Shown: positions 3,224 through 63,436 of the stretch, piece after piece
How positions within the stretch are numbered: position 1 is the first letter of the stretch
Layout of the letters: each line of letters starts with the position of its first letter
Source of the DNA: Clostridiales bacterium
Lineage (GTDB): Bacteria; Bacillota; Clostridia; Christensenellales; Borkfalkiaceae
DNA: 64,000 nucleotides
Assembly: GCA_003538975.1 (NCBI GenBank)
Contig: DPQQ01000007.1
Location: 17,408 to 81,407, forward strand
Direction of reading: 5' to 3'
The notes under the pieces: model-generated
The model's database searches: none
What the model saw: the letters and a program-made list of their open reading frames with translations, nothing else
What the model was told of the DNA's origin: nothing
Program-made: the position numbers and the translations under genes

Positions 3224-6200
3224 ATGAAGAAGGTATTGATGATTTTACTTGCCGTTATATTCTCGCTGGCGGCGATATTCGCGGCGGCGTGCGGCAAAAA
3301 AGGCGATTCGTCCGGTAACGGCTCGGGAGAACCGGGCGGAGGAACTTCAGGCGGCGGCCAGCAGGAGCAGGAAAAACAGATAGAAGAGACTAAGACTGAA
3401 ACTCTGGAATCCGCTTCCGCAATGTATTCGTCGGCATCCGTTCAGAGTATGAGCGCGGAAGAAAAGTTTACCGTAGATATTTATTACAGTTACTTTTTAG
3501 GCGAAATTTCAGACTTTACCGGCAGTATAGAAGAAGTAAAAGCGCATACGGCAGAACTTCTGAGAGAGTTCGAAGAAATAATACAAAACATTTCGAAAAA
3601 AGCAGAAACGCTTGCGGAAGTAAAACAAAAGGCATTGACCGAAATCAAAGCGGTTTACGATTCCGCGGCGATGCTCGCAGGCGGCGCGAAAAATTACGTT
3701 ACCGCGGCTTATAACGAGATAAAAACCGAAATCGAATCCGCAACGAAGGAGAAAATCCCGGAACTTGTAGCAAAGTTCAAGGCGGAAGCGTACGAATATT
3801 TTAAGGAAAAGGTAGAATTTGCAGCCGAAGAAATAAAGTCGCTCGCAGAAGCGGAGCTTAACAGAATTGTAAACGAAATAAAAACTAAAATCGAAGATTC
3901 TGAAATTACGGCGAAGATAACCGAATATTACGCTTTGGCAAAAGAAAAAATCGAAGCGGCTGCGGGTACGGACATAGACGGAATTATCGCGGCGGTTAAA
4001 TCGGAAGCGGCTTCAAAGACGAAAGAATTTGCCGCGGAACAAATTTCGAAATATAAAACAGCGGTAAAAACATACATAGACGGTATCGTGAACACAGCGC
4101 TCTCTAAAATAGAAGATCAGGAACTTAAAACCGATCTTACGAATTATTACAATGCGGAAACTAAAAAGCTCGAAGCCATAAGCAGCATAGATACGGCAAA
4201 AATAACGGCGGAAGAAATTAAGGCTGATACCGAAGAGTTTGTTAAAACTCAGATCAAAAAACAGGTAGATAAATTTAAGACCGCCGCCAAAGAAAAGTTA
4301 GACGGCTCAGTAAACGCGGCTCTTTCTAAAATAGAAGATCAGGAACTTAAAGCCGACCTTACGAATTTTTATAATACCGAATCCGCAAAGCTTGCTGCCG
4401 TAAATAACATAGACACAGCAAAAGCGACCGTCCGGGAAATAGTTTCCGACACCGAAACGTTTGTTAAAAATCAGCTTTCAAAGCAGGTCGAAAAATATAA
4501 GACTGCGGCGAAAGCGTATATAGATAAGATCGTAAACGCAGCGCTCTCTAAAATAGAAGATCAGGAACTTAAAACCGATCTTACGAATTATTATAACGCC
4601 GAAACTAAAAAGCTCGAAGCTATAAACAGCATAGATACGTCAAAAACAACGGCGGAAGAAATTAAGGTCGATACCGAAGAGTTTATTAAAACTCAAATCA
4701 AAAAACAGGTAGATAAATTTAAGACCGCAGCCATGGAAAAACTTAACGAAGCTCATAACGCTGCGATAAGTAAGCTTAAAAGCGAAAGCGCAAAGGAAAA
4801 ACTTACGGTTGCTTATAACAATTCGATTAAAGGATTCGATGCAATAATCGATATAGACACGGCGAAAGCGGCTCTTGATAACGCCGTAGCGGAATACAAA
4901 ACCGCGGCGGAAGGAATAATAAAAGACGAAATATCCGTTTTTGTCGAGTCGGCGAAAGAAAAAATTAAAAAAGTTTACGATACAGCTTCGAAGCCGTTGA
5001 CCGCACAGGCTAAAGATAAGCTCGAAGAAATTTATAACGACGCTATCGCCGATCTTAAAACGATAAAGACGGCAGACGATGTCGAAAGAGTTATGTCCGA
5101 CTTTGAAACCGCCGCTAAAGAATACGTTATAGAAGCGTTGAATGCGATTTTCGAAAAAATGGGCGAAGTTCCCGATCCGTGGCAATTTCTTCCGGAAAGT
5201 TTCGGCGTGAAAAATATGCTTGTTTCTGAGAATAATATCCCCGATTACGTTGATTTTACCGCGGTAAGCGCGATTCCGCAGAATTATATAGGCAAAGGTT
5301 TGAACGTCGTTTATAAAGCTCTCAATAAAACGACGACGGCAATAGGCTATGTAAATAAGGTTCACGCCGTATTTAATACTGTCGGCAGCGTTTACAACAC
5401 GATTTTAGAAAACGCCGACGGGCAGGATCTTACGATAGAAGCCGGTTCGGTTGTTCTTACGATAAAGTTAACGACCGATAGCTATAAGATTCTCGCTAAA
5501 ATAGGTCCCGTTGAAGTCGAACTGTATTCCTATCTCGATAAAACTTATTACGGGGCGAGAGTGCAGCTTGCTTCAAATACGGTAGCTAAATATACCGTAA
5601 CCGAAAAAGAATTTATAATGGCAATAGATATAGCGGATACCTACGTTACGCATATTTCTTTCGTAAAAGAAGGCGGGACGACAGTGGGACACGTTTACGA
5701 AACTATCGTAGCGCAGGATAAAACCCTTACTTCGACGAGTTCGCTTGTTACCGTGAAAGACGGCTTTACCACCGTTGTCGGCAACAAGGGCGACTTTATC
5801 CCAACGAGCGGCGGCATTAACTGCGAAGTTTATGAAAATTCTACGGGAAGATTTGTCGGAAGCGAAGTATACGAAGAAATAAGCGATAACAAATTTTACG
5901 ATACACTTTGGTATAATTTAAGAGATATTGAAGGAATAAATACCGTTAAAAAGGAAGACAAGGCAAACGGAACGAACGCCGATACCATATACATAAACGG
6001 CGCGACCGACACTATACACACCAAGTTTGTCAGCATTACCGATTTTTCGAGAAGATTCGATATAGAATTTAAAAAAGTTTATGCGTTTACCTATAACGAA
6101 GAAACCGAAGAATACGACAGCGTAGAGTTCGAAGTGCCGATGATGTTTGTCCAGGAAAAACATGCCGATACGTTCGCAAGCGATTTCGAAGACAAAAATA

Positions 6201-17639: not shown

Positions 17640-17787
17640 ATTTTAAATTCTTTGGGGTGAGGCGTAATTCCTTACCGGCAGTATAGTCTGCGAGCCTTGC
17701 GGCACGATTCGGTGCGATTCCGAAACCGACGGTAACAGTCCGGATGGTAAAAGAATCGTTTTTTCGCGCCCCGAAAGGGGCTTTTTT
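17640..17787 (+). promoter_or_regulatory. FMN riboswitch (RFN element) with terminator / RBS-sequestering hairpin
   Basis: ggggtgaGGcgtAATTCCttACCGGCaGTAtAGTCtGCGAg...GATTCCGaaaCCGACgGTaAcAGTCCGGATGgtaAAAGAa matches the RFN consensus. The hairpin cgcgcccc-gaaa-ggggc-tttttt abuts the ATG. A TTGCAT-N17-TATAAA promoter lies at about 17565. Confidence 0.85.
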
Positions 17788-29824: not shown

Positions 29825-30024
29825 TTATTGCGTAAAACGAAATAACCGCAGACAGCAGGTGAACGTAATGTTCTCAATATCCCGCCGAGGTAAACCTTAA
29901 GACTTAAAATTTAAGTCCCGTTGTCCTTGGCGTCAGCGGGACTTTCTTTTTCGTCCTAAGGGACATAAAATAAAAAACTTAACGGTTTAGTTACTTACGT
30001 TAAATAAAACAGGAGGTAAACACA
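29825..30024 (+). promoter_or_regulatory. rplJ (L10) leader, with attenuator-like hairpin gtcccg-ttgtccttggcgtcag-cgggac + tttcttttt
   Basis: The position and structure fit the Firmicute L10-leader autoregulatory RNA. No covariance-model search was run. Confidence 0.55.
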
Positions 30025-56799: not shown

Positions 56800-56941
56800 T
56801 TTGTTATAGTCCGCATGGTTATCTTTTGACCGCACTCCCGGACGGCGAAGCCATAGTAAAAGCAATAATTTGAGGCACGAATATGGACATCGCCGATAAA
56901 AAATGGTATAATGCGGGTATCTTATAAATGCGGAGCTGATT

Positions 56942-57937: not shown

Positions 57938-58121
57938 GTTATATTATGGCTGAATCGGTTCGGCAGACTTGCGGGTAAAATCCGTTATCGGCGAAAGCAA
58001 AAACGGACGGCGAAGATTTTTCGGATTTTTATTTTTTAAGATTTAAGATATTGATTAAAAAATTTTAATATGCTACAATAAAGTAGCTACACAATTTAAT
58101 CATAGGATTTTCGGTATTGAA

Positions 58122-58284
58122 GGGCATATTATACCCTTTTTTTGACCATAACCAAATTATTGAATTTGATAAAAACTCAAATTCCACTAAAAAGGTTATG
58201 GCAATACCGTAATACCGATTAGATTGTGTAGCGACAACGGAGTTTGCGTTTTTTGTGCGGCAGCTTCGGTTGTCGCACTTTTTG
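58122..58284 (+). repeat. Leader element copy A (about 160 nt): GGG..CAT..TACCCTTTTT box, palindrome GAATTTG-N9-CAAATTC, then CGGAGTTTGCGTTTTTTGTGCGGCAGCTTCGGTTGTCGCACTTTTT hairpin
   Basis: A second copy at 60284-60444 matches the last 52 nt at 51/52 positions. Confidence 0.8.
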
Positions 58285-58372
58285 TTTAAGGGGGATGTAA
58301 ACATGTGATAATCGGAAAAGGTAAGGAAGGTTTGTGAATAAAATTAAGAAAAGAGAGAGAGGAGTTATTTAA

Positions 58373-60010
58373 ATGAAAAAGAATTTTCAGGTTATATTTT
58401 TAAGCATAATAATGCTTATATCCATGTGTTTTGCGGTTACTGGGTGCAAAAAGAAGGACAACCCGTCCGGTAAAAACAAGGAATACGCCGTTTCGTTCTA
58501 CGTGGACGACGTGTTGGTGAAAACCGTTAAGTCAAAAGGAAACGAAGAAATAGATTTCCCCGAAGATCCGTCCAAAGAAGGCTACTTTTTTGCGGGGTGG
58601 GGTTGCACGTTTTCGAACGGTTATATCGAAAAATATTTTACTTCGGAATATTATAAAAACATACCGATGGGCGAAGATATAAAAGTTTTTGCTCAATGGA
58701 AGAAGAAAATCACCATACATTTCGAAATGAACGGCGGTTATTATCAGAATCACAACGAACCGGGCGAAATTCCGACAGGTCCGCTCCCCGATGAGATAAT
58801 ACGCGAAGGGCAGAAATCTCTCCGTATCAACACCGTAATAGAAAAGGCCAACAACGCCGCTTTCGCGGGATGGTACGACAATCCCGAACTCGAAGGCGAC
58901 AGAATAACCGATCCGTACTATCCGACCGAAAGCGTAACGCTTTACGCCGCATGGGTTGACGAAGCGAACGTTGTTACCGAAAGCGGATTCAAACTTTCTT
59001 ACTACGACGGCTTAGGAGGCTATTATACCGAAGGGTATTTCGGCGAAGACGTAACCGAACTTGTTATTCCGTCTTCTTATAAAGGCGTACCCGTCGTAGA
59101 GATATGGAGTCCGTTTTATTTTAAGGATTATCAGGTTTTCAACAGAACGATTACTTCGATAAAAACTTCAAAAAATCTTAAGGTGATAAAAGATAACGCA
59201 TTTCAGCTTTGCAGCGCGCTTACTTCGGTAACGATCAGCGACACCGTAGAAGAAATAGGGGACAATGCGTTCGACGTGAATTCTCTTGCGAACATCACCA
59301 TGGGCAAAAACGTGAAGTACATAGGCGCAAACGCCTTCGGTAACGTAAACAACTACAATGCGCCGGCATGGGCGAAAAGCCTCCCCGACGGTCCCGTGTA
59401 TTTAGGCAACGTTTTCTACGGATATAAGGGAATCATAAACGGATCTTTCGAGATAAAAAGCGGGACGACGGCGATTGCCGGAAATGCGTTTTACGGACAG
59501 AATCAAATGACTTCGGTAACCATTCCGCAGGGCGTCGAAATTATAGGCAGATATGCTTTCGGAGGCTGTACGCAGTTAAAAACGATAAATATGCCGGGTA
59601 CCATGACGGATATTTACGCTTACGCATTTTATAACTGTACTTCGCTTGAAAGTTTTGTTATGCCGGATTCGGTAACTTCGATAAAAGACGGTATATTCTC
59701 GGGTTGTACGAGCTTAAAAAGCGTAACGCTTTCAGAAAATCTTACAAGGCTCGAATACGGCATGTTCGAAAACTGCCCGATAACGGAACTTATCGTTCCC
59801 GAAAAGGTAGTTTTTATCGGCAACGCTTTTACAGGGAATACGACTTTGCAAAAGGTAACTATTAAGAAAGCCGAAATAGACTTCGGCGAACTGGCTATGG
59901 ATTACGTTCCCGACAGCGTAACCGCCATTTATGTGCAGGAAAATCTTGTCGAAGCCTTCAAGTCGCAATATCCCGCTCACGCGGATAAATTTTTCGCGAT
60001 AGAAAAATAA
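58373..60010 (+). CDS. Surface lipoprotein with Listeria/Bacteroides-type (Flg_new) repeats and BspA-type leucine-rich repeats
   Basis: The lipobox is MCFAVTGCKK. FAGWGC and AGWYDNPELEGDRI are Flg_new repeats. The C-terminal LRR units follow the pattern ...IGxxAFxxCxxLxSVxIP.... Confidence 0.8.
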   Translation: MKKNFQVIFLSIIMLISMCFAVTGCKKKDNPSGKNKEYAVSFYVDDVLVKTVKSKGNEEIDFPEDPSKEGYFFAGWGCTFSNGYIEKYFTSEYYKNIPMGEDIKVFAQWKKKITIHFEMNGGYYQNHNEPGEIPTGPLPDEIIREGQKSLRINTVIEKANNAAFAGWYDNPELEGDRITDPYYPTESVTLYAAWVDEANVVTESGFKLSYYDGLGGYYTEGYFGEDVTELVIPSSYKGVPVVEIWSPFYFKDYQVFNRTITSIKTSKNLKVIKDNAFQLCSALTSVTISDTVEEIGDNAFDVNSLANITMGKNVKYIGANAFGNVNNYNAPAWAKSLPDGPVYLGNVFYGYKGIINGSFEIKSGTTAIAGNAFYGQNQMTSVTIPQGVEIIGRYAFGGCTQLKTINMPGTMTDIYAYAFYNCTSLESFVMPDSVTSIKDGIFSGCTSLKSVTLSENLTRLEYGMFENCPITELIVPEKVVFIGNAFTGNTTLQKVTIKKAEIDFGELAMDYVPDSVTAIYVQENLVEAFKSQYPAHADKFFAIEK

Positions 60011-60049
60011 AAATTCAGTCAGATTTCAGTCAAAAAAAGATTGTTCTAT

Positions 60050-60085
60050 AAAAACAAGCCCGACCAAATAGTCGGGCTTGTTTTT
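60050..60085 (+). terminator. Rho-independent terminator (aaaacaagcccgac-caaata-gtcgggcttgttttt)
   Basis: Perfect stem. Confidence 0.85.
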
Positions 60086-60283
60086 ATATGGTATGGTTTT
60101 GCCATAACCGTTCCAGCCGAATATCCGCCTTGAACGATATAAAACGAAACTCTTATTTTGAAGTTTTTGATTTATATTCTTAAAAATTTAACAAAACGAT
60201 TGAATTATCTGAAATAATATGATACACTGAAAATGCCAAATCAAACGAATCCTTATTTTGCAAGGACTCTTTATATTTTTATA

Positions 60284-60444
60284 GGGGTGCATTGTACCCT
60301 TTTATATGACACATCATAGAATTTGATAAAAATGCAAATTCCATTCGGTGTGTTGTAAGTTAGTTCTTGCATAGAATCCGTTTGGTTTGGCGACTATCGG
60401 AGTTTGCGTTTTTTGTGCGGCAACTTCGGTTGTCGCACTTTTTA
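60284..60444 (+). repeat. Leader element copy B
   Basis: See copy A. It lies immediately upstream of the RBS aggaggg and the ATG at 60463. Confidence 0.8.
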
Positions 60445-60462
60445 TTTTTAGGAGGGAAAAAT

Positions 60463-60894
60463 ATGTTTAAATTGAAGAAGGTGGTTTTTTCATTTATAGG
60501 AACCTTACTGATTCTTCTAATTGCAAGTTTTTTTGTTGCATGCGGCGATGATGTCGAAGAAACCGAAAACAATTATCCTGTTGTAGGCATTTGGCACGCA
60601 CAAGCAACGTGGAGAGAAGATAATCCTTATAATTATGGTGGTGATATATGTAAATTGGATATTTGGTTTGATTTTAGAGAAGACGGAACGTTAAAAAATA
60701 AATTAATATTATTAGTTAATGGATATACCTTGAGCGATACTGATTGGATAATTGCTAATCTTACTTGGTCTGTCAAAGATAATGTTATTACATTATCGAA
60801 TGGTAAGCAGTTTGTGATTGTTGACGATGAATTTAATGATATATATCCTGATCCTAAAATGATATTACATTATAAAAAGGAATTGTCTGAATAA
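60463..60894 (+). CDS. Hypothetical lipoprotein (143 aa) with low-GC foreign codon usage
   Basis: The lipobox is LIASFFVACGDD. GC content is about 33%, against about 47% in the surrounding genes. Confidence 0.65.
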   Translation: MFKLKKVVFSFIGTLLILLIASFFVACGDDVEETENNYPVVGIWHAQATWREDNPYNYGGDICKLDIWFDFREDGTLKNKLILLVNGYTLSDTDWIIANLTWSVKDNVITLSNGKQFVIVDDEFNDIYPDPKMILHYKKELSE

Positions 60895-60918
60895 ATTTTA
60901 AACATAAGGAGACTTATA

Positions 60919-61689
60919 ATGGGAAGATATTGGAAAGTAAATTGTCCATATTGTAATGCAGAGATTGCACAGGGACATGGTTATGGGGACAAAGTCCCCG
61001 ATGTTTGGGTACCATTTATCCGCTGTGAGATTTGTGGCGGTTTGATAAAAACGGGTAGTAGTGAATATTTGACTATTCCGGTGGAAAAACGGATACGGCT
61101 AAAAAGAACAACAAAAAATTGTGAATATATAGAACAATCGTTAGATAGAACAAACAATGAAGAGTATGTAGCTTTTTTGCAAAAAAATGGTTTTATAATA
61201 TATCCGATAACCAACATAGATAAAGATAGTTTTGAAGATGTTCGGTTCGATTTATATATAAATAATCAGCCGTCTACGAGTGCTACACAATCGTTATATA
61301 ATGTGGGGATTTTAATCGAAGAAGAAAAATTGGACAAAGAAACCGGCGGAATAAAAAAAGAAATTTTAGAGAAAAATCAACAAGCCTATGATTTAAATCA
61401 AAAAATTTCGCGATGGAGCGTAGGCATAGGTTTTGCTGTTGGAATTGTTTTTACTGTTTTATTCGGGAGTATAAACCCAAATAGCTATCTCTTTCTAATC
61501 GGTATTATAATGGGGATTGGGAGTGCGGTCGCGGTATGTTTTGGAATGGAGAATTATTACAAAAATAAAGATCAACAACCAAATAATTCTGCCGCTCAAA
61601 AAAATAAAGAACCATATGATAACGGTATTGTTAGTAAAGAAAAATATCAAGAAAAAGAACGTAAAATCATCGATGATAACGAGAAATAA
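60919..61689 (+). CDS. Hypothetical protein: N-terminal CxxC...CxxC zinc ribbon, coiled region, two C-terminal TM helices; low GC
   Basis: The zinc ribbon is CPYC...CEIC. The C-terminal TM segments read WSVGIGFAVGIVFTVLF and LFLIGIIMGIGSAVAVCF. Confidence 0.6.
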   Translation: MGRYWKVNCPYCNAEIAQGHGYGDKVPDVWVPFIRCEICGGLIKTGSSEYLTIPVEKRIRLKRTTKNCEYIEQSLDRTNNEEYVAFLQKNGFIIYPITNIDKDSFEDVRFDLYINNQPSTSATQSLYNVGILIEEEKLDKETGGIKKEILEKNQQAYDLNQKISRWSVGIGFAVGIVFTVLFGSINPNSYLFLIGIIMGIGSAVAVCFGMENYYKNKDQQPNNSAAQKNKEPYDNGIVSKEKYQEKERKIIDDNEK

Positions 61690-61910
61690 TTATGAATTAT
61701 AAGAAATGTTCTTGGAGTGATGAATTAAATTACATAAGCGATGATGAATAACTTTGTGGAATGTGTAGACCACAAATAAAAATTACGTACGACTCATGCA
61801 AAAGTTGTAGAAACTGATTTTTCTCATATTATACGCGAGCGTATATATGGTGGCAATTCTTGCAAAATTTATAAAAAGTTTTGTAATACGCTTGGTTGGA
61901 AAAAACAAAA

Positions 61911-61948
61911 AAGCAAGTCGAATCTTATTGATTCGACTTGCTTTTTTA
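61911..61948. terminator. Bidirectional terminator (gcaagtcgaatc-ttattg-attcgacttgc) with T-run on + and A-run on the other side
   Basis: It sits at the 3' end of the minus-strand tRNA pair. Confidence 0.8.
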
Positions 61949-61949
61949 G

Positions 61950-62374: not shown

Positions 62375-63436
62375 ATGGCTTTATTTGCAAAAATAATCGA
62401 ATGGTCCGACGATACAAAGGATACTCTCGTATATAAATATCCCCTTAAAAAAGCGGGAAGAGAACTCAACAACAAGAGTAAACTTATCGTAAGAGAATCG
62501 CAGGAAGCGGTATTTGTTCATAAAGGACAGATATGCGACATTTTCCCTGCGGGTTCGTACGATCTCGGCACGGATATATTCCCGATACTTTCTAAACTCG
62601 CGGGCTGGCGTTACGGATTCCAGTCGCCGATCACCTGCGACATTTATTACGTTAACACGAAGCAGTTCACCAATCAGAAGTGGGGAACTTCTAACCCGAT
62701 TATCGTAAGAGATCCCGAATTCGGCATGGTAAGAGTCAAAGGTTACGGCTCGTATTCGTTTAAAGTTCAGAACGTAGAAACGTTCCTTAAAGAGCTTTTC
62801 GGAACCAACTCGTCTTTCGTTACCGAAGATATTACCGGCTGGCTTAAAACGCTCGTCGTTTCGTACATAACCGACGCTATCGGCGAAAGTAAAATTTCGA
62901 TTCTCGATATGGCGGGCAACACGCTCGAATTCAATACCATAATCAAGAACAACGTTCAGGAAAAGTTCGACGAAATCGGCTTGAGACTTGAAAACTTCGT
63001 CGTTGAAAATCTTTCGCTCCCGCAGGAAGTCGAAAAGAGAATCGACGAACGTTCCGGCTACGGCGTATTGAGCGGCGCTACCGACACCATGATGAAGGTT
63101 GCCGCAGCGGACGCAATGAAGGAAGCCGCAAAGAATCCGGGAATGGGCGGTACGTTTATGGGCGCAGGGGTAGGTCTCGGCGCAGGAGTTGGCGTTGGCA
63201 AAATTTTCAGCGACGCGCTTAACTCTAAAGAAGAACAGGCTAAACCGCAGACGGCTGCGGCTCCCGCGGCGACCGCTACGAAAGCTTGCCCCAAGTGCGG
63301 CGCGAGCGTTCCCGCAAATTCAAAGTTCTGTCCCGAATGCGGCGAAAAGATGCCCGTGGCTAAATTCTGTCCCGAATGCGGCGCAAAGGTAGACGCAGGC
63401 GCTAAATTCTGCCCCGAATGCGGAAAGAAGCTTTAA
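62375..63436 (+). CDS. SPFH/band-7 domain protein with three C-terminal KFCPECG zinc-ribbon repeats
   Basis: The N-terminal SPFH-like domain begins MALFAKIIEWSDD...VFVHKGQ. A Gly/Ala-rich linker follows. There are three CPxCG ribbons. A TTGCAT...TGTATAAT promoter lies upstream. Confidence 0.75.
   Translation: MALFAKIIEWSDDTKDTLVYKYPLKKAGRELNNKSKLIVRESQEAVFVHKGQICDIFPAGSYDLGTDIFPILSKLAGWRYGFQSPITCDIYYVNTKQFTNQKWGTSNPIIVRDPEFGMVRVKGYGSYSFKVQNVETFLKELFGTNSSFVTEDITGWLKTLVVSYITDAIGESKISILDMAGNTLEFNTIIKNNVQEKFDEIGLRLENFVVENLSLPQEVEKRIDERSGYGVLSGATDTMMKVAAADAMKEAAKNPGMGGTFMGAGVGLGAGVGVGKIFSDALNSKEEQAKPQTAAAPAATATKACPKCGASVPANSKFCPECGEKMPVAKFCPECGAKVDAGAKFCPECGKKL

Follow-up and report, generated by a model that had tools for sequence, protein, structure and literature searches.

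Two leader copies in a gut Clostridiales contig belong to a large uncatalogued family of candidate transcription attenuators

We analysed a stretch of 64,000 nucleotides (the window) from a Clostridiales bacterium of the Borkfalkiaceae (assembly GCA_003538975.1, contig DPQQ01000007.1, positions 17,408 to 81,407 of the forward strand), in which a first-pass annotation had described a structured leader cassette of roughly 160 nt, duplicated upstream of two different lipoprotein genes. Both copies, here called copy A and copy B, are members of a large uncatalogued family of 5' leaders of ~200 nt in gut Clostridia, mostly Oscillospirales, and these leaders probably act as transcription attenuators. 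Leaders with a terminator and an antiterminator are of a well-known kind. This family, however, is not in Rfam and is unnamed in the literature that we found, and it stands out by its abundance in gut Clostridia, its invariant core of ~35 nt and its heterogeneous cargo of surface genes, cargo being the genes directly downstream of a leader.

Leader family, RNA fold and position

Both copies are present where the first-pass annotation had placed them, but they start 36-49 nt further upstream. A long outer stem, with a completely different sequence in copies A and B, closes both folds, and hence the element starts at 58086 and 60235. Its size is ~205-216 nt (copy A 58086-58290, copy B 60235-60450). 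Compared with shuffled sequences, the single-copy RNA folds had z-scores of -4.6 (copy A) and -6.6 (copy B). Pairwise comparison of the two copies gave 45 of 46 identical positions over CGGAG...CTTTTT, so that block 3 of the first-pass annotation measures 46 nt with one mismatch rather than 52 nt with 51 identities; elsewhere, the two sequences are unrelated except for patches of identity at blocks 1 and 2. Within the 64 kb, block 3 (CGGAGTTTGCGTTTTTTGTGCGGCA) is present at 58238 and 60398 and nowhere else, where chance would give 0 occurrences, and block 2, the palindrome GAATTTG-N9-CAAATTC, also occurs exactly twice (at 58162 and 60319). A covariance model of the family, whose training alignment included both window copies, scored 178.7 bits for copy B and 159.1 bits for copy A against 25 bits for the next best match, and its search of the 64-kb window revealed no third copy.

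The exact 22-mer of block 3 matched at least 120 loci in a collection with one genome per species, and the block 2 pattern matched at least 120 metagenome loci. Among the matches listed, the hosts were nearly all metagenome-assembled genomes (MAGs) of gut Clostridia, labelled as Oscillospiraceae, Acutalibacteraceae, Faecousia, Fimenecus, Ruminococcus, Eubacteriales or Clostridia. The covariance model identified ~95 full-length members in independent metagenome loci, with scores of 130-196 bits. At least two leaders were present in the window and in each of the loci L061, L158 and L181, and four MAGs had matches on two contigs each. Tandem leaders, each with its own small open reading frame (ORF), were found down to 290 nt apart (L158 32-254 and 546-758; L061 1548-1742 and 2486-2708; L181 4226-4443 and 6366-6570).

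A search with Rfam 15, which covered families including T-box, GEMM-I/II, ydaO, PyrR, Gut-1 and Clostridiales-1, gave no sense-strand match on the window copies or on 18 canonical loci, neither at the gathering threshold nor at E <= 10. This agrees with the first-pass annotation, which had supposed an uncharacterised element. Thousands of unnamed riboswitch candidates have been obtained from gut metagenomes (PMC8040213). These candidates could not be compared by sequence, and the leader family may already be present, anonymously, in such large candidate lists; we found no name for it in the literature.

The members share one layout. A promoter is followed by the 5' arm of stem P1 (GCCAAACYAA...), by a variable region that often contains rGGGAUAUUAUACCCUUUU (P3), and by a long arm P4 with the tip UGAAUUUGAUAAAAAYGCAAAUUCC. 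Next come the 3' arm of P1 (...UURGUUUGGC), GACUAUCGGAGUUUGCGUUUUUU, a terminator, a ribosome-binding site (RBS) and a start codon. Reduced forms retain only a P1 hairpin and the 3' module (L071, L082), only the 3' module or linker behind a different promoter (L089, L091), or only the 5' domain without linker and terminator (L133, L173, L195).

It is strongly supported that the element is a sense-strand RNA fold, in which P1 and P2 form a long outer stem, P3 is variable, and the long arm P4 ends in an invariant apex. We aligned 96 members with MAFFT (the training set), derived a consensus from the per-sequence folds, and built the covariance model from this alignment. In this set, 89.5% of the cells were standard pairs, compared with at most 41% when the partners were slid. 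Double changes occurred in 30 of the 50 pairs, and covariation was 0.262 versus 0.142 after shuffling (0 of 500). A second, independent set of metagenome loci, aligned by fitting to the model, had 91.8% of the cells paired (33-42% when slid), double changes in 39 of the 50 pairs, and a covariation of 0.441 versus 0.134 after shuffling (0 of 500). Arms of the same sequence also paired more strongly than arms taken from different sequences, both at the base of P4 (-12.8 versus -4.1 kcal/mol) and in the distal part of P1 with P2 (-18.1 versus -10.3 kcal/mol).

The stems contained 456 G-U but only 112 A-C combinations. This excess fixes the sense strand and argues for RNA rather than for a symmetry at the DNA level. 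The first-pass annotation had interpreted the palindrome GAATTTG-N9-CAAATTC as a DNA operator. Neither its position, which is ~77-99 nt into the transcript and at the end of a covarying RNA arm, nor its 9-nt spacer, which is asymmetric and invariant in one orientation, fits this reading, and the G-U bias also speaks against it. Near-invariance is seen in the outer 10 bp of P1, in the linker and throughout the P4 apex, both stem and loop, whereas the distal part of P1, P2 and the base of P4 vary freely with compensation. Of the unpaired nucleotides that might form a pocket, those of the apex loop do not vary, but P3 and the junctions show little conservation: a sequence like that of block 1/P3 is present in only 102 of the 177 members. 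A covarying structured domain lies upstream of the expression platform, as in riboswitches. A protein-coding function or leader peptide was rejected: although an ORF of copy B spans block 3, members carry 1-nt indels in this block and lack synonymous-site variation. The W-T-G before P1 was likewise rejected as coding sequence, since it lies upstream of the predicted transcription start.

Leaders of this family have their own promoter. In the 175 distinct upstream regions, TTG was present at -35 in 133, TGnTAnnnT within 20 nt upstream of P1 in 142, and a -10 hexamer at -12 to -7 in 138. Because the distance between promoter and P1 is fixed, the predicted transcription start is the first G of P1, and hence the first base of the RNA would be paired. 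Downstream sequence was sufficient in 191 leaders; in 177 of them the following ORF lay on the same strand, and the median gap was ~20 nt. With its own promoter and a same-strand ORF just downstream, the element is a 5' untranslated region (5' UTR) located between promoter and gene, as expected of an attenuation leader.

The 3' module and its competing helices

The 3' module was aligned from loci that had been found via block 2, so that block 3 was unbiased. The linker was present with at most five edits in 101 of the 111 loci with enough downstream sequence, and was exact in 21. The terminator stem behind it was 99.2% paired, with a covariation of 0.384 and variants such as GUGCGU..GGCGCAC, GGCGCU..AGCGCC and AUGCG..CGCAU. 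A terminator scan of the window located the two hairpins at 58255-58278 and 60415-60438, each with a 10-bp stem including six G-C pairs, a UUCG loop and a T5 tract, which are the features of an intrinsic terminator. The terminator of the first-pass annotation is hence upheld, although as a 10-bp stem with a UUCG tetraloop instead of 8 bp with an 8-nt loop. These two hairpins share a rare variant of the stem, GGCARC...GUUGUCGC, which was found elsewhere in only a few members (e.g. L013, L054, L123, L181, L213 and L239). Its presence in both window copies would be unlikely by chance if they were independent, and hints at concerted evolution or co-adaptation within the genome.

The competing antiterminator that the first-pass annotation had proposed was also borne out. 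The strand GCGACUAUCGGAGU is complementary to ACUUCGGURGNCGC, i.e. to the terminator loop and 3' arm, and was 90.7% paired over 14 pairs, with one position that is usually an A mismatch. Double changes were found in 15 cells compared with 5 expected, a number reached in 0 of 500 shuffles; they consisted mainly of a swap from U-A to A-U in 11 sequences. Single compensations occurred in L054 (UGGAG with CUUCAG) and L202 (CGGGG with CUCCG). When folded in isolation, the 3' module adopted the antiterminator in 96 of 97 members, at -22.3 kcal/mol versus -17.5 kcal/mol for the terminator hairpin. The two helices are mutually exclusive, as in other attenuation leaders.

Conserved complementarity suggests a third, competing pairing, between the linker and the apex of P4. 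Over 15 positions, two of them G-U, GGAGUUUGCGUUUUU is complementary to the P4 apex loop and 3' arm (AAAAAYGCAAAUUCC). In two samples, 99.3% and 99.2% of the cells were standard pairs, compared with 28-61% when slid. Within the apex region, variation is highest at Y16 and C25, where only pyrimidines occur, each opposite a G of the linker; the three linkers with an A opposite the apex Y all have U there. The predicted apex-linker duplex (-18.1 kcal/mol) is more stable than the apex hairpin (-4.0 kcal/mol). It would exclude the antiterminator, because both use GGAGU and GCG, and would be compatible with the terminator.

From these pairings we infer the following direction of regulation. The leader would be transcribed from its own sigma-70-type promoter, with the first base of P1 as first transcribed base, and would act in cis on the directly downstream gene via conditional transcription termination. 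In the OFF state, the invariant 3' module would fold as an intrinsic terminator. In the ON state, the antiterminator would arise from pairing of GCGACUAUCGGAGU with the loop and 3' arm of the terminator. A third layer would be added by pairing of GGAGUUUGCGUUUUU with the P4 apex loop and 3' arm, which would sequester the antiterminator strand and allow the terminator to form, whereas closure of the P4 apex hairpin would release that strand. The proposed chain thus runs from apex hairpin via anti-antiterminator (apex-linker) and antiterminator to terminator, as a series of mutually exclusive helices. Relative to the folded 5' domain, the summed energy is -22.3 kcal/mol for a closed apex with antiterminator, and about -31.6 kcal/mol for apex-linker pairing with terminator before any pseudoknot penalty. 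Whether the two states form a bistable switch would depend on the size of this penalty. As effector, a protein or a kinetic input (pausing of RNA polymerase at the U tract) seems somewhat more likely than a small molecule bound in a pocket, because it is the exchanging helices that are invariant, with little conservation in P3 and the junctions.

The two copies, their cargo and their neighbourhood

All features described here for the two copies are on the + strand. The promoter of copy A (58051..58079) was detected by a promoter scan and consists of a -35 box TTGATT, a 17-nt spacer and a TG-extended -10 box TACAAT. The 5' domain (58086..58232), delineated by RNA fold, model alignment and family covariation, comprises P1 (58086-58101 pairing with 58217-58232), P2 (58112-58119 pairing with 58202-58209), the P3 hairpin that corresponds to block 1 (58120-58138), and the P4 arm (58146-58201), whose apex hairpin GAAUUUG-AUAAAAACU-CAAAUUC (58162-58184) corresponds to block 2. 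The invariant linker (58231..58254), which is the first part of block 3, contains the antiterminator 5' strand GCGACAACGGAGU as well as GGAGUUUGCGUUUUU (58239-58253), the sequence complementary to the P4 apex. It is followed by the intrinsic terminator with its U5 tract (58255..58283).

Downstream of this terminator, an RBS (AAGGGGG) and start-stop mini-ORFs can be read from the sequence at 58288..58308. The first-pass annotation had noted one such mini-ORF; it is indeed present (ATG-TGA, 58303-58308), but 8 nt rather than 9 nt separate it from AAGGGGG, and a second one (ATG-TAA, 58295-58300) stands just before it. The mini-ORFs occupy the usual position of RBS and start codon in the family, and the actual cargo, a lipoprotein with BspA-type LRR_5 and Listeria-Bacteroides repeat domains (58373..60010), starts 64 nt later with its own RBS. 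The gap to the real start codon is 87 nt, compared with a family median of ~20 nt. The mini-ORFs may be left over from an earlier cargo junction, or may act as a translational device. They are specific to copy A and its close relatives; reading a few other long-spacer members by eye revealed none. A near-identical copy A with its LRR gene is present in L048 (MGYG-HGUT-03503). There, the LRR gene diverges past window position 59559 (396 aa versus 545 aa), and L048 1355-3019, corresponding to window 56802-56858, holds ~1.6 kb extra between a gene for a 301-aa protein and an N6/N4 DNA methylase gene.

In copy B, a promoter with -35 box TTGAAT, 17-nt spacer and TG-extended -10 box TACACT (60200..60228) was recognised from the sequence and the family profile; it was not listed by the promoter scan, and TACACT has 4 of 6 matches. 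The 5' domain (60235..60391; RNA fold and model alignment at 178.7 bits) comprises P1 (60235-60252 pairing with 60374-60391), P2 (60260-60267 pairing with 60363-60370), P3 (60284-60299), and the P4 arm (~60306-60357) with its apex at 60319-60341. The invariant linker (60390..60414) contains the antiterminator 5' strand GCGACUAUCGGAGU and, at 60399-60413, GGAGUUUGCGUUUUU; in the minimum free energy (MFE) fold of this copy, the antiterminator is formed. The terminator and U tract follow at 60415..60443. An RBS (AGGAGGG, 60450-60456) and two cargo genes come next (60450..61689, GC content 0.33); the first gene (60463-60894) encodes a lipoprotein of 143 aa, the second (60919-61689) a zinc-ribbon-like membrane protein of 256 aa. 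The only exact match to the cargo B protein was from the same locus.

The leader is attached to many different genes, often encoding surface proteins or lipoproteins, in agreement with the first-pass annotation. Our survey comprised two sets of 107 and 85 non-redundant proteins encoded by the first ORF, with more than 50 Pfam families. BspA-type LRR_5 was the commonest family (14 of 107 and 6 of 85; 20 of 192 overall). AMP-binding proteins, which resembled long-chain-fatty-acid-CoA ligases according to NCBIfam, were found in 9 and 1 cases (10 of 192 overall), and PlsC-type acyltransferases in 6 and 1 cases. An operon of this ligase and acyltransferase, in varying gene order, stands behind ~24 leaders. 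Other cargo included DUF6591, zinc ribbons, SPFH, collagen repeats, dockerin, lectin, GH25 and CHAP wall hydrolases, ECF-type sigma factors, the Ltp lipoprotein and GIY-YIG. About half of the first ORFs had signal, lipobox or transmembrane N-termini. The gene associations did not point to a single ligand. The window itself encodes, at 62375-63436 (+) and without a leader, an SPFH (Band_7_1) protein that carries double zinc ribbons at its C-terminus, while SPFH homologues stand directly behind a leader in L005, L021 and one metagenome locus. In L037 and ~10 other loci, which represent one recurrent locus, a leader with an LRR surface-protein gene follows immediately after spoIVB, a gene that usually neighbours spo0A.

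Comparison of strains showed that leader and cargo B are gained or lost together. L242, a 99%-identical strain of the window's own species, lacks window 60151-61949 and has 53 nt instead (L242 7241-7293), whereas the unit is present in L241. The missing stretch runs from promoter B through the leader and the two low-GC genes to the terminator behind them. Because the whole unit is missing together, the unit of gain and loss includes the leader. Its right junction is the 3' end of a tRNA-Leu(CAG) gene. Direct repeats were absent at this indel, no integrase was present at it or in the window flanks, and nothing in the strain comparison indicated that cargo is exchanged at one site behind a front end that stays in place. 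Hence, the cassette-exchange system suggested by the first-pass annotation received no support: neither recombination sites nor machinery were found, and the unit was present or absent as a whole.

Leaders are enriched a short way downstream of tRNA genes, most strongly for tRNA-Arg(CCT) on the same strand. A tRNA was located within 1 kb upstream in 25 of 153 leaders, where by our estimate a few percent would be expected from typical tRNA density, and 27 of the 29 such tRNAs were on the same strand. Fourteen of these were tRNA-Arg, mostly with anticodon CCT; 13 of the 14 were on the same strand, and the cargo behind their leaders differed. The distance from tRNA-Arg(CCT) to the leader was typically 200-300 nt, and the site downstream of this gene looks like a hot spot. 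Leaders near a tRNA include L012, L026, L034, L052, L057, L063, L072, L077, L081, L084, L100 and L107. In L113, two matches to Gut-1 RNA (RF01706) stand back to back (3904-3980, +; 3994-4066, -) between a tRNA-Leu and the leader, so that a second orphan RNA of gut bacteria occupies this variable spot. Elsewhere in the window, Rfam models matched two ordinary annotated families, an FMN riboswitch (17644-17759, +; 98.9 bits) and a ribosomal protein L10 leader (29828-29956, +; 64.6 bits).

Alternative explanations and known systems

Several observations weigh against attenuation by this exchange of helices. Termination and read-through are both predictions. In each of the two samples one side of the apex-linker pairing was fixed by the search pattern, and no compensatory double changes were found in it. 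The length of the P4 arm did not correlate with that of the P1/P2 stack (r = -0.06), which gives no geometric support for a fold-back. Furthermore, the reduced forms L071, L082, L089 and L091 lack P3/P4 or the whole 5' domain and yet have an unchanged linker, whose function may therefore be independent of P4. Pure RNA switches are not usually near-invariant over ~35 nt in different families, and the cargo is too diverse to indicate the signal. Finally, 1384 clustered neighbour ORFs from 1.7 Mb of flanks contained no recurrent neighbouring regulator; the clusters consisted only of cargo families and syntenic housekeeping genes (SpoIVB, Spo0A, UvrB and an ABC ATPase).

A classical riboswitch for a metabolite or second messenger is the strongest of the alternatives, although we consider it unlikely. 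Here P1-P4 would form an aptamer, and the ligand would stabilise either the closed apex or the apex-linker pseudoknot to control an envelope and surface regulon. This explanation would account for a multi-helix covarying domain directly before a terminator and antiterminator, for several copies per genome, and for the enrichment of the cargo in envelope functions, including the fatty-acid ligase and PlsC-type operon behind ~24 leaders and the signal, lipobox or transmembrane N-termini in about half of the first ORFs. However, the junctions and P3 are poorly conserved (102 of 177 members with a block 1-like sequence), the invariant parts are the partner-swapping helices, which is the reverse of most aptamers, variants without the aptamer keep the platform, and the cargo has no single metabolic theme.

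It is rather improbable that the leader is a constitutive expression module, in which a strong promoter, a 5' stem protecting the mRNA and the antiterminator as default fold would serve stability or translation. That the antiterminator is the MFE fold in 96 of 97 members, that the first transcribed base is paired in P1, that minimal variants keep the 3' module only and that unrelated cargo is attached would all fit such a module. It would leave unexplained why every member keeps a perfect terminator (99.2% paired, covarying and with a U tract) that could only be harmful, and why compensatory change preserves the elaborate P4 arm with its invariant apex. Moreover, apex-linker pairing with terminator reaches about -31.6 kcal/mol before the pseudoknot penalty, compared with -22.3 kcal/mol for the antiterminator state.

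There is little chance that these sequences are free-standing, trans-acting small RNAs of ~195 nt, with independent or secondarily coupled downstream genes. Their own promoter, strong terminator, several paralogues per genome with an identical 3' module, and a single-stranded A-rich apex loop as possible seed would suit this idea, but the U tract is followed after a median of ~20 nt by an RBS and start codon, 177 of 191 leaders share their strand with the next ORF, and the cargo of copy B has no evident separate promoter.

An element acting at the DNA level (a palindromic operator, invertible promoter, miniature inverted-repeat transposable element (MITE) or integron-like cassette site) is largely refuted and the least probable of all: the P1 arms do form inverted repeats flanking ~120 bp with a perfect 7-bp palindrome inside, units are gained and lost between strains beside a tRNA gene, and 25 of 153 leaders have a tRNA within 1 kb upstream, but block 2 precedes block 3 on the same strand in the ~115 first-scan copies checked, with none inverted, the strand-specific 4:1 ratio of G-U to A-C points to RNA, the internal stems covary rather than being identical copies, and the 9-nt spacer of the palindrome is invariant and asymmetric. 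The core had no exact match in IMG/VR viral contigs and none in plasmids; the one partial phage match (MT835503.1 485-537, an unannotated record of a human faecal 'Bacteriophage sp.') was 88.7% over 53 nt and comprised the 3' module only. As specific candidates, an inverton was rejected since blocks 2 and 3 were in opposite orientation in 0 of the ~115 first-scan copies and the promoter lies outside the repeats, and a MITE or terminal inverted repeat since the internal arms differ and covary, direct repeats are absent at the strain indel, and viral contigs and plasmids gave no matches. An integron attC site was rejected since the P1 arms GCCAAAC / GTTTGGC do not fit RYYYAAC / GTTRRRY and the units have their own promoters. 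With at least 120 copies each in species genomes and metagenomes, and with strong covariation, the repeat is thus neither restricted to two copies nor the end of a mobile element, the two outcomes that would have spoken against the first-pass interpretation.

Oscillospiraceae, Acutalibacteraceae and their relatives are abundant, mostly uncultured gut anaerobes with almost no known regulatory biology. If several genes per genome share the leader across more than 100 species, it would define a regulon of host-facing surface proteins, including BspA-like LRR adhesins, collagen-like and lectin proteins, lipoproteins and enzymes of membrane-lipid remodelling, and a leader of ~200 nt would give a tractable handle for finding the controlling signal. 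The promoter-leader module could also serve as an expression or reporter part in these organisms, and the near-invariant core of 35 nt is a convenient metagenome marker for such genes. More tentatively, the family might represent a new class of riboswitch or riboregulator, in which an unusual four-layer helix exchange, with a hairpin apex as decoy for the antiterminator strand, would place variable surface and envelope genes of the dominant Oscillospirales under one intracellular signal; we regard this as possible but doubtful. If true, few uncatalogued classes of the human and ruminant gut would be more abundant, with BspA-type adhesins, lipoproteins, wall hydrolases and fatty-acid incorporation enzymes as its gene set.

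As candidate attenuators, the leaders resemble the anti-antiterminator attenuators of Firmicutes, such as the S-box (SAM-I) and the PyrR-controlled pyr leaders. They share with these a set of nested helices, in which a terminator, a more stable antiterminator that uses the terminator 3' arm, and an upstream sequestering element succeed each other, as well as a promoter of their own and a terminator with U tract placed directly ahead of the gene. However, sequence and model similarity is absent (Rfam, E <= 10), the putative sequestering partner is a distant hairpin apex (pseudoknot-type) rather than an adjacent helix, and the cargo consists of heterogeneous surface and accessory genes instead of the genes of one pathway. 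Similarly, T-box leaders combine a long stem domain at the 5' end with a highly conserved antiterminator strand behind it, which competes with the terminator and is nearly invariant across genes and species. In contrast to our family, the T-box apex loop carries a gene-specific codon, whereas here the apex loop is invariant; the T-box model did not match, and the cargo does not consist of aminoacyl-tRNA synthetase or amino-acid genes.

With respect to cargo, c-di-GMP-I/II riboswitches offer a parallel, which the riboswitch alternative above would resemble. They occur in many copies per Clostridioides difficile genome, upstream of adhesins, pili, flagella and proteases, and hence are multi-copy cis leaders that subject diverse surface-protein genes to one signal via transcription termination. 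The GEMM-I and GEMM-II models do not match our leaders, and architecture and conserved nucleotides are unrelated. The RfaH/ops (JUMPstart) and LoaP-type systems depend on a NusG paralogue that reads a signal in DNA or in a small RNA hairpin. There, too, a short near-invariant leader sequence is found on many horizontally acquired surface and accessory operons, where it is needed to get past terminators, but the present family has a covarying RNA domain of ~150 nt and an explicit pair of terminator and antiterminator. Finally, like the orphan riboswitch candidates Gut-1 and Clostridiales-1, these leaders come from comparative discovery, mainly in uncultured gut Firmicutes. Unlike those candidates, the leader is not a motif curated in Rfam, and the Gut-1 RNA beside the leader in L113 is a separate element.

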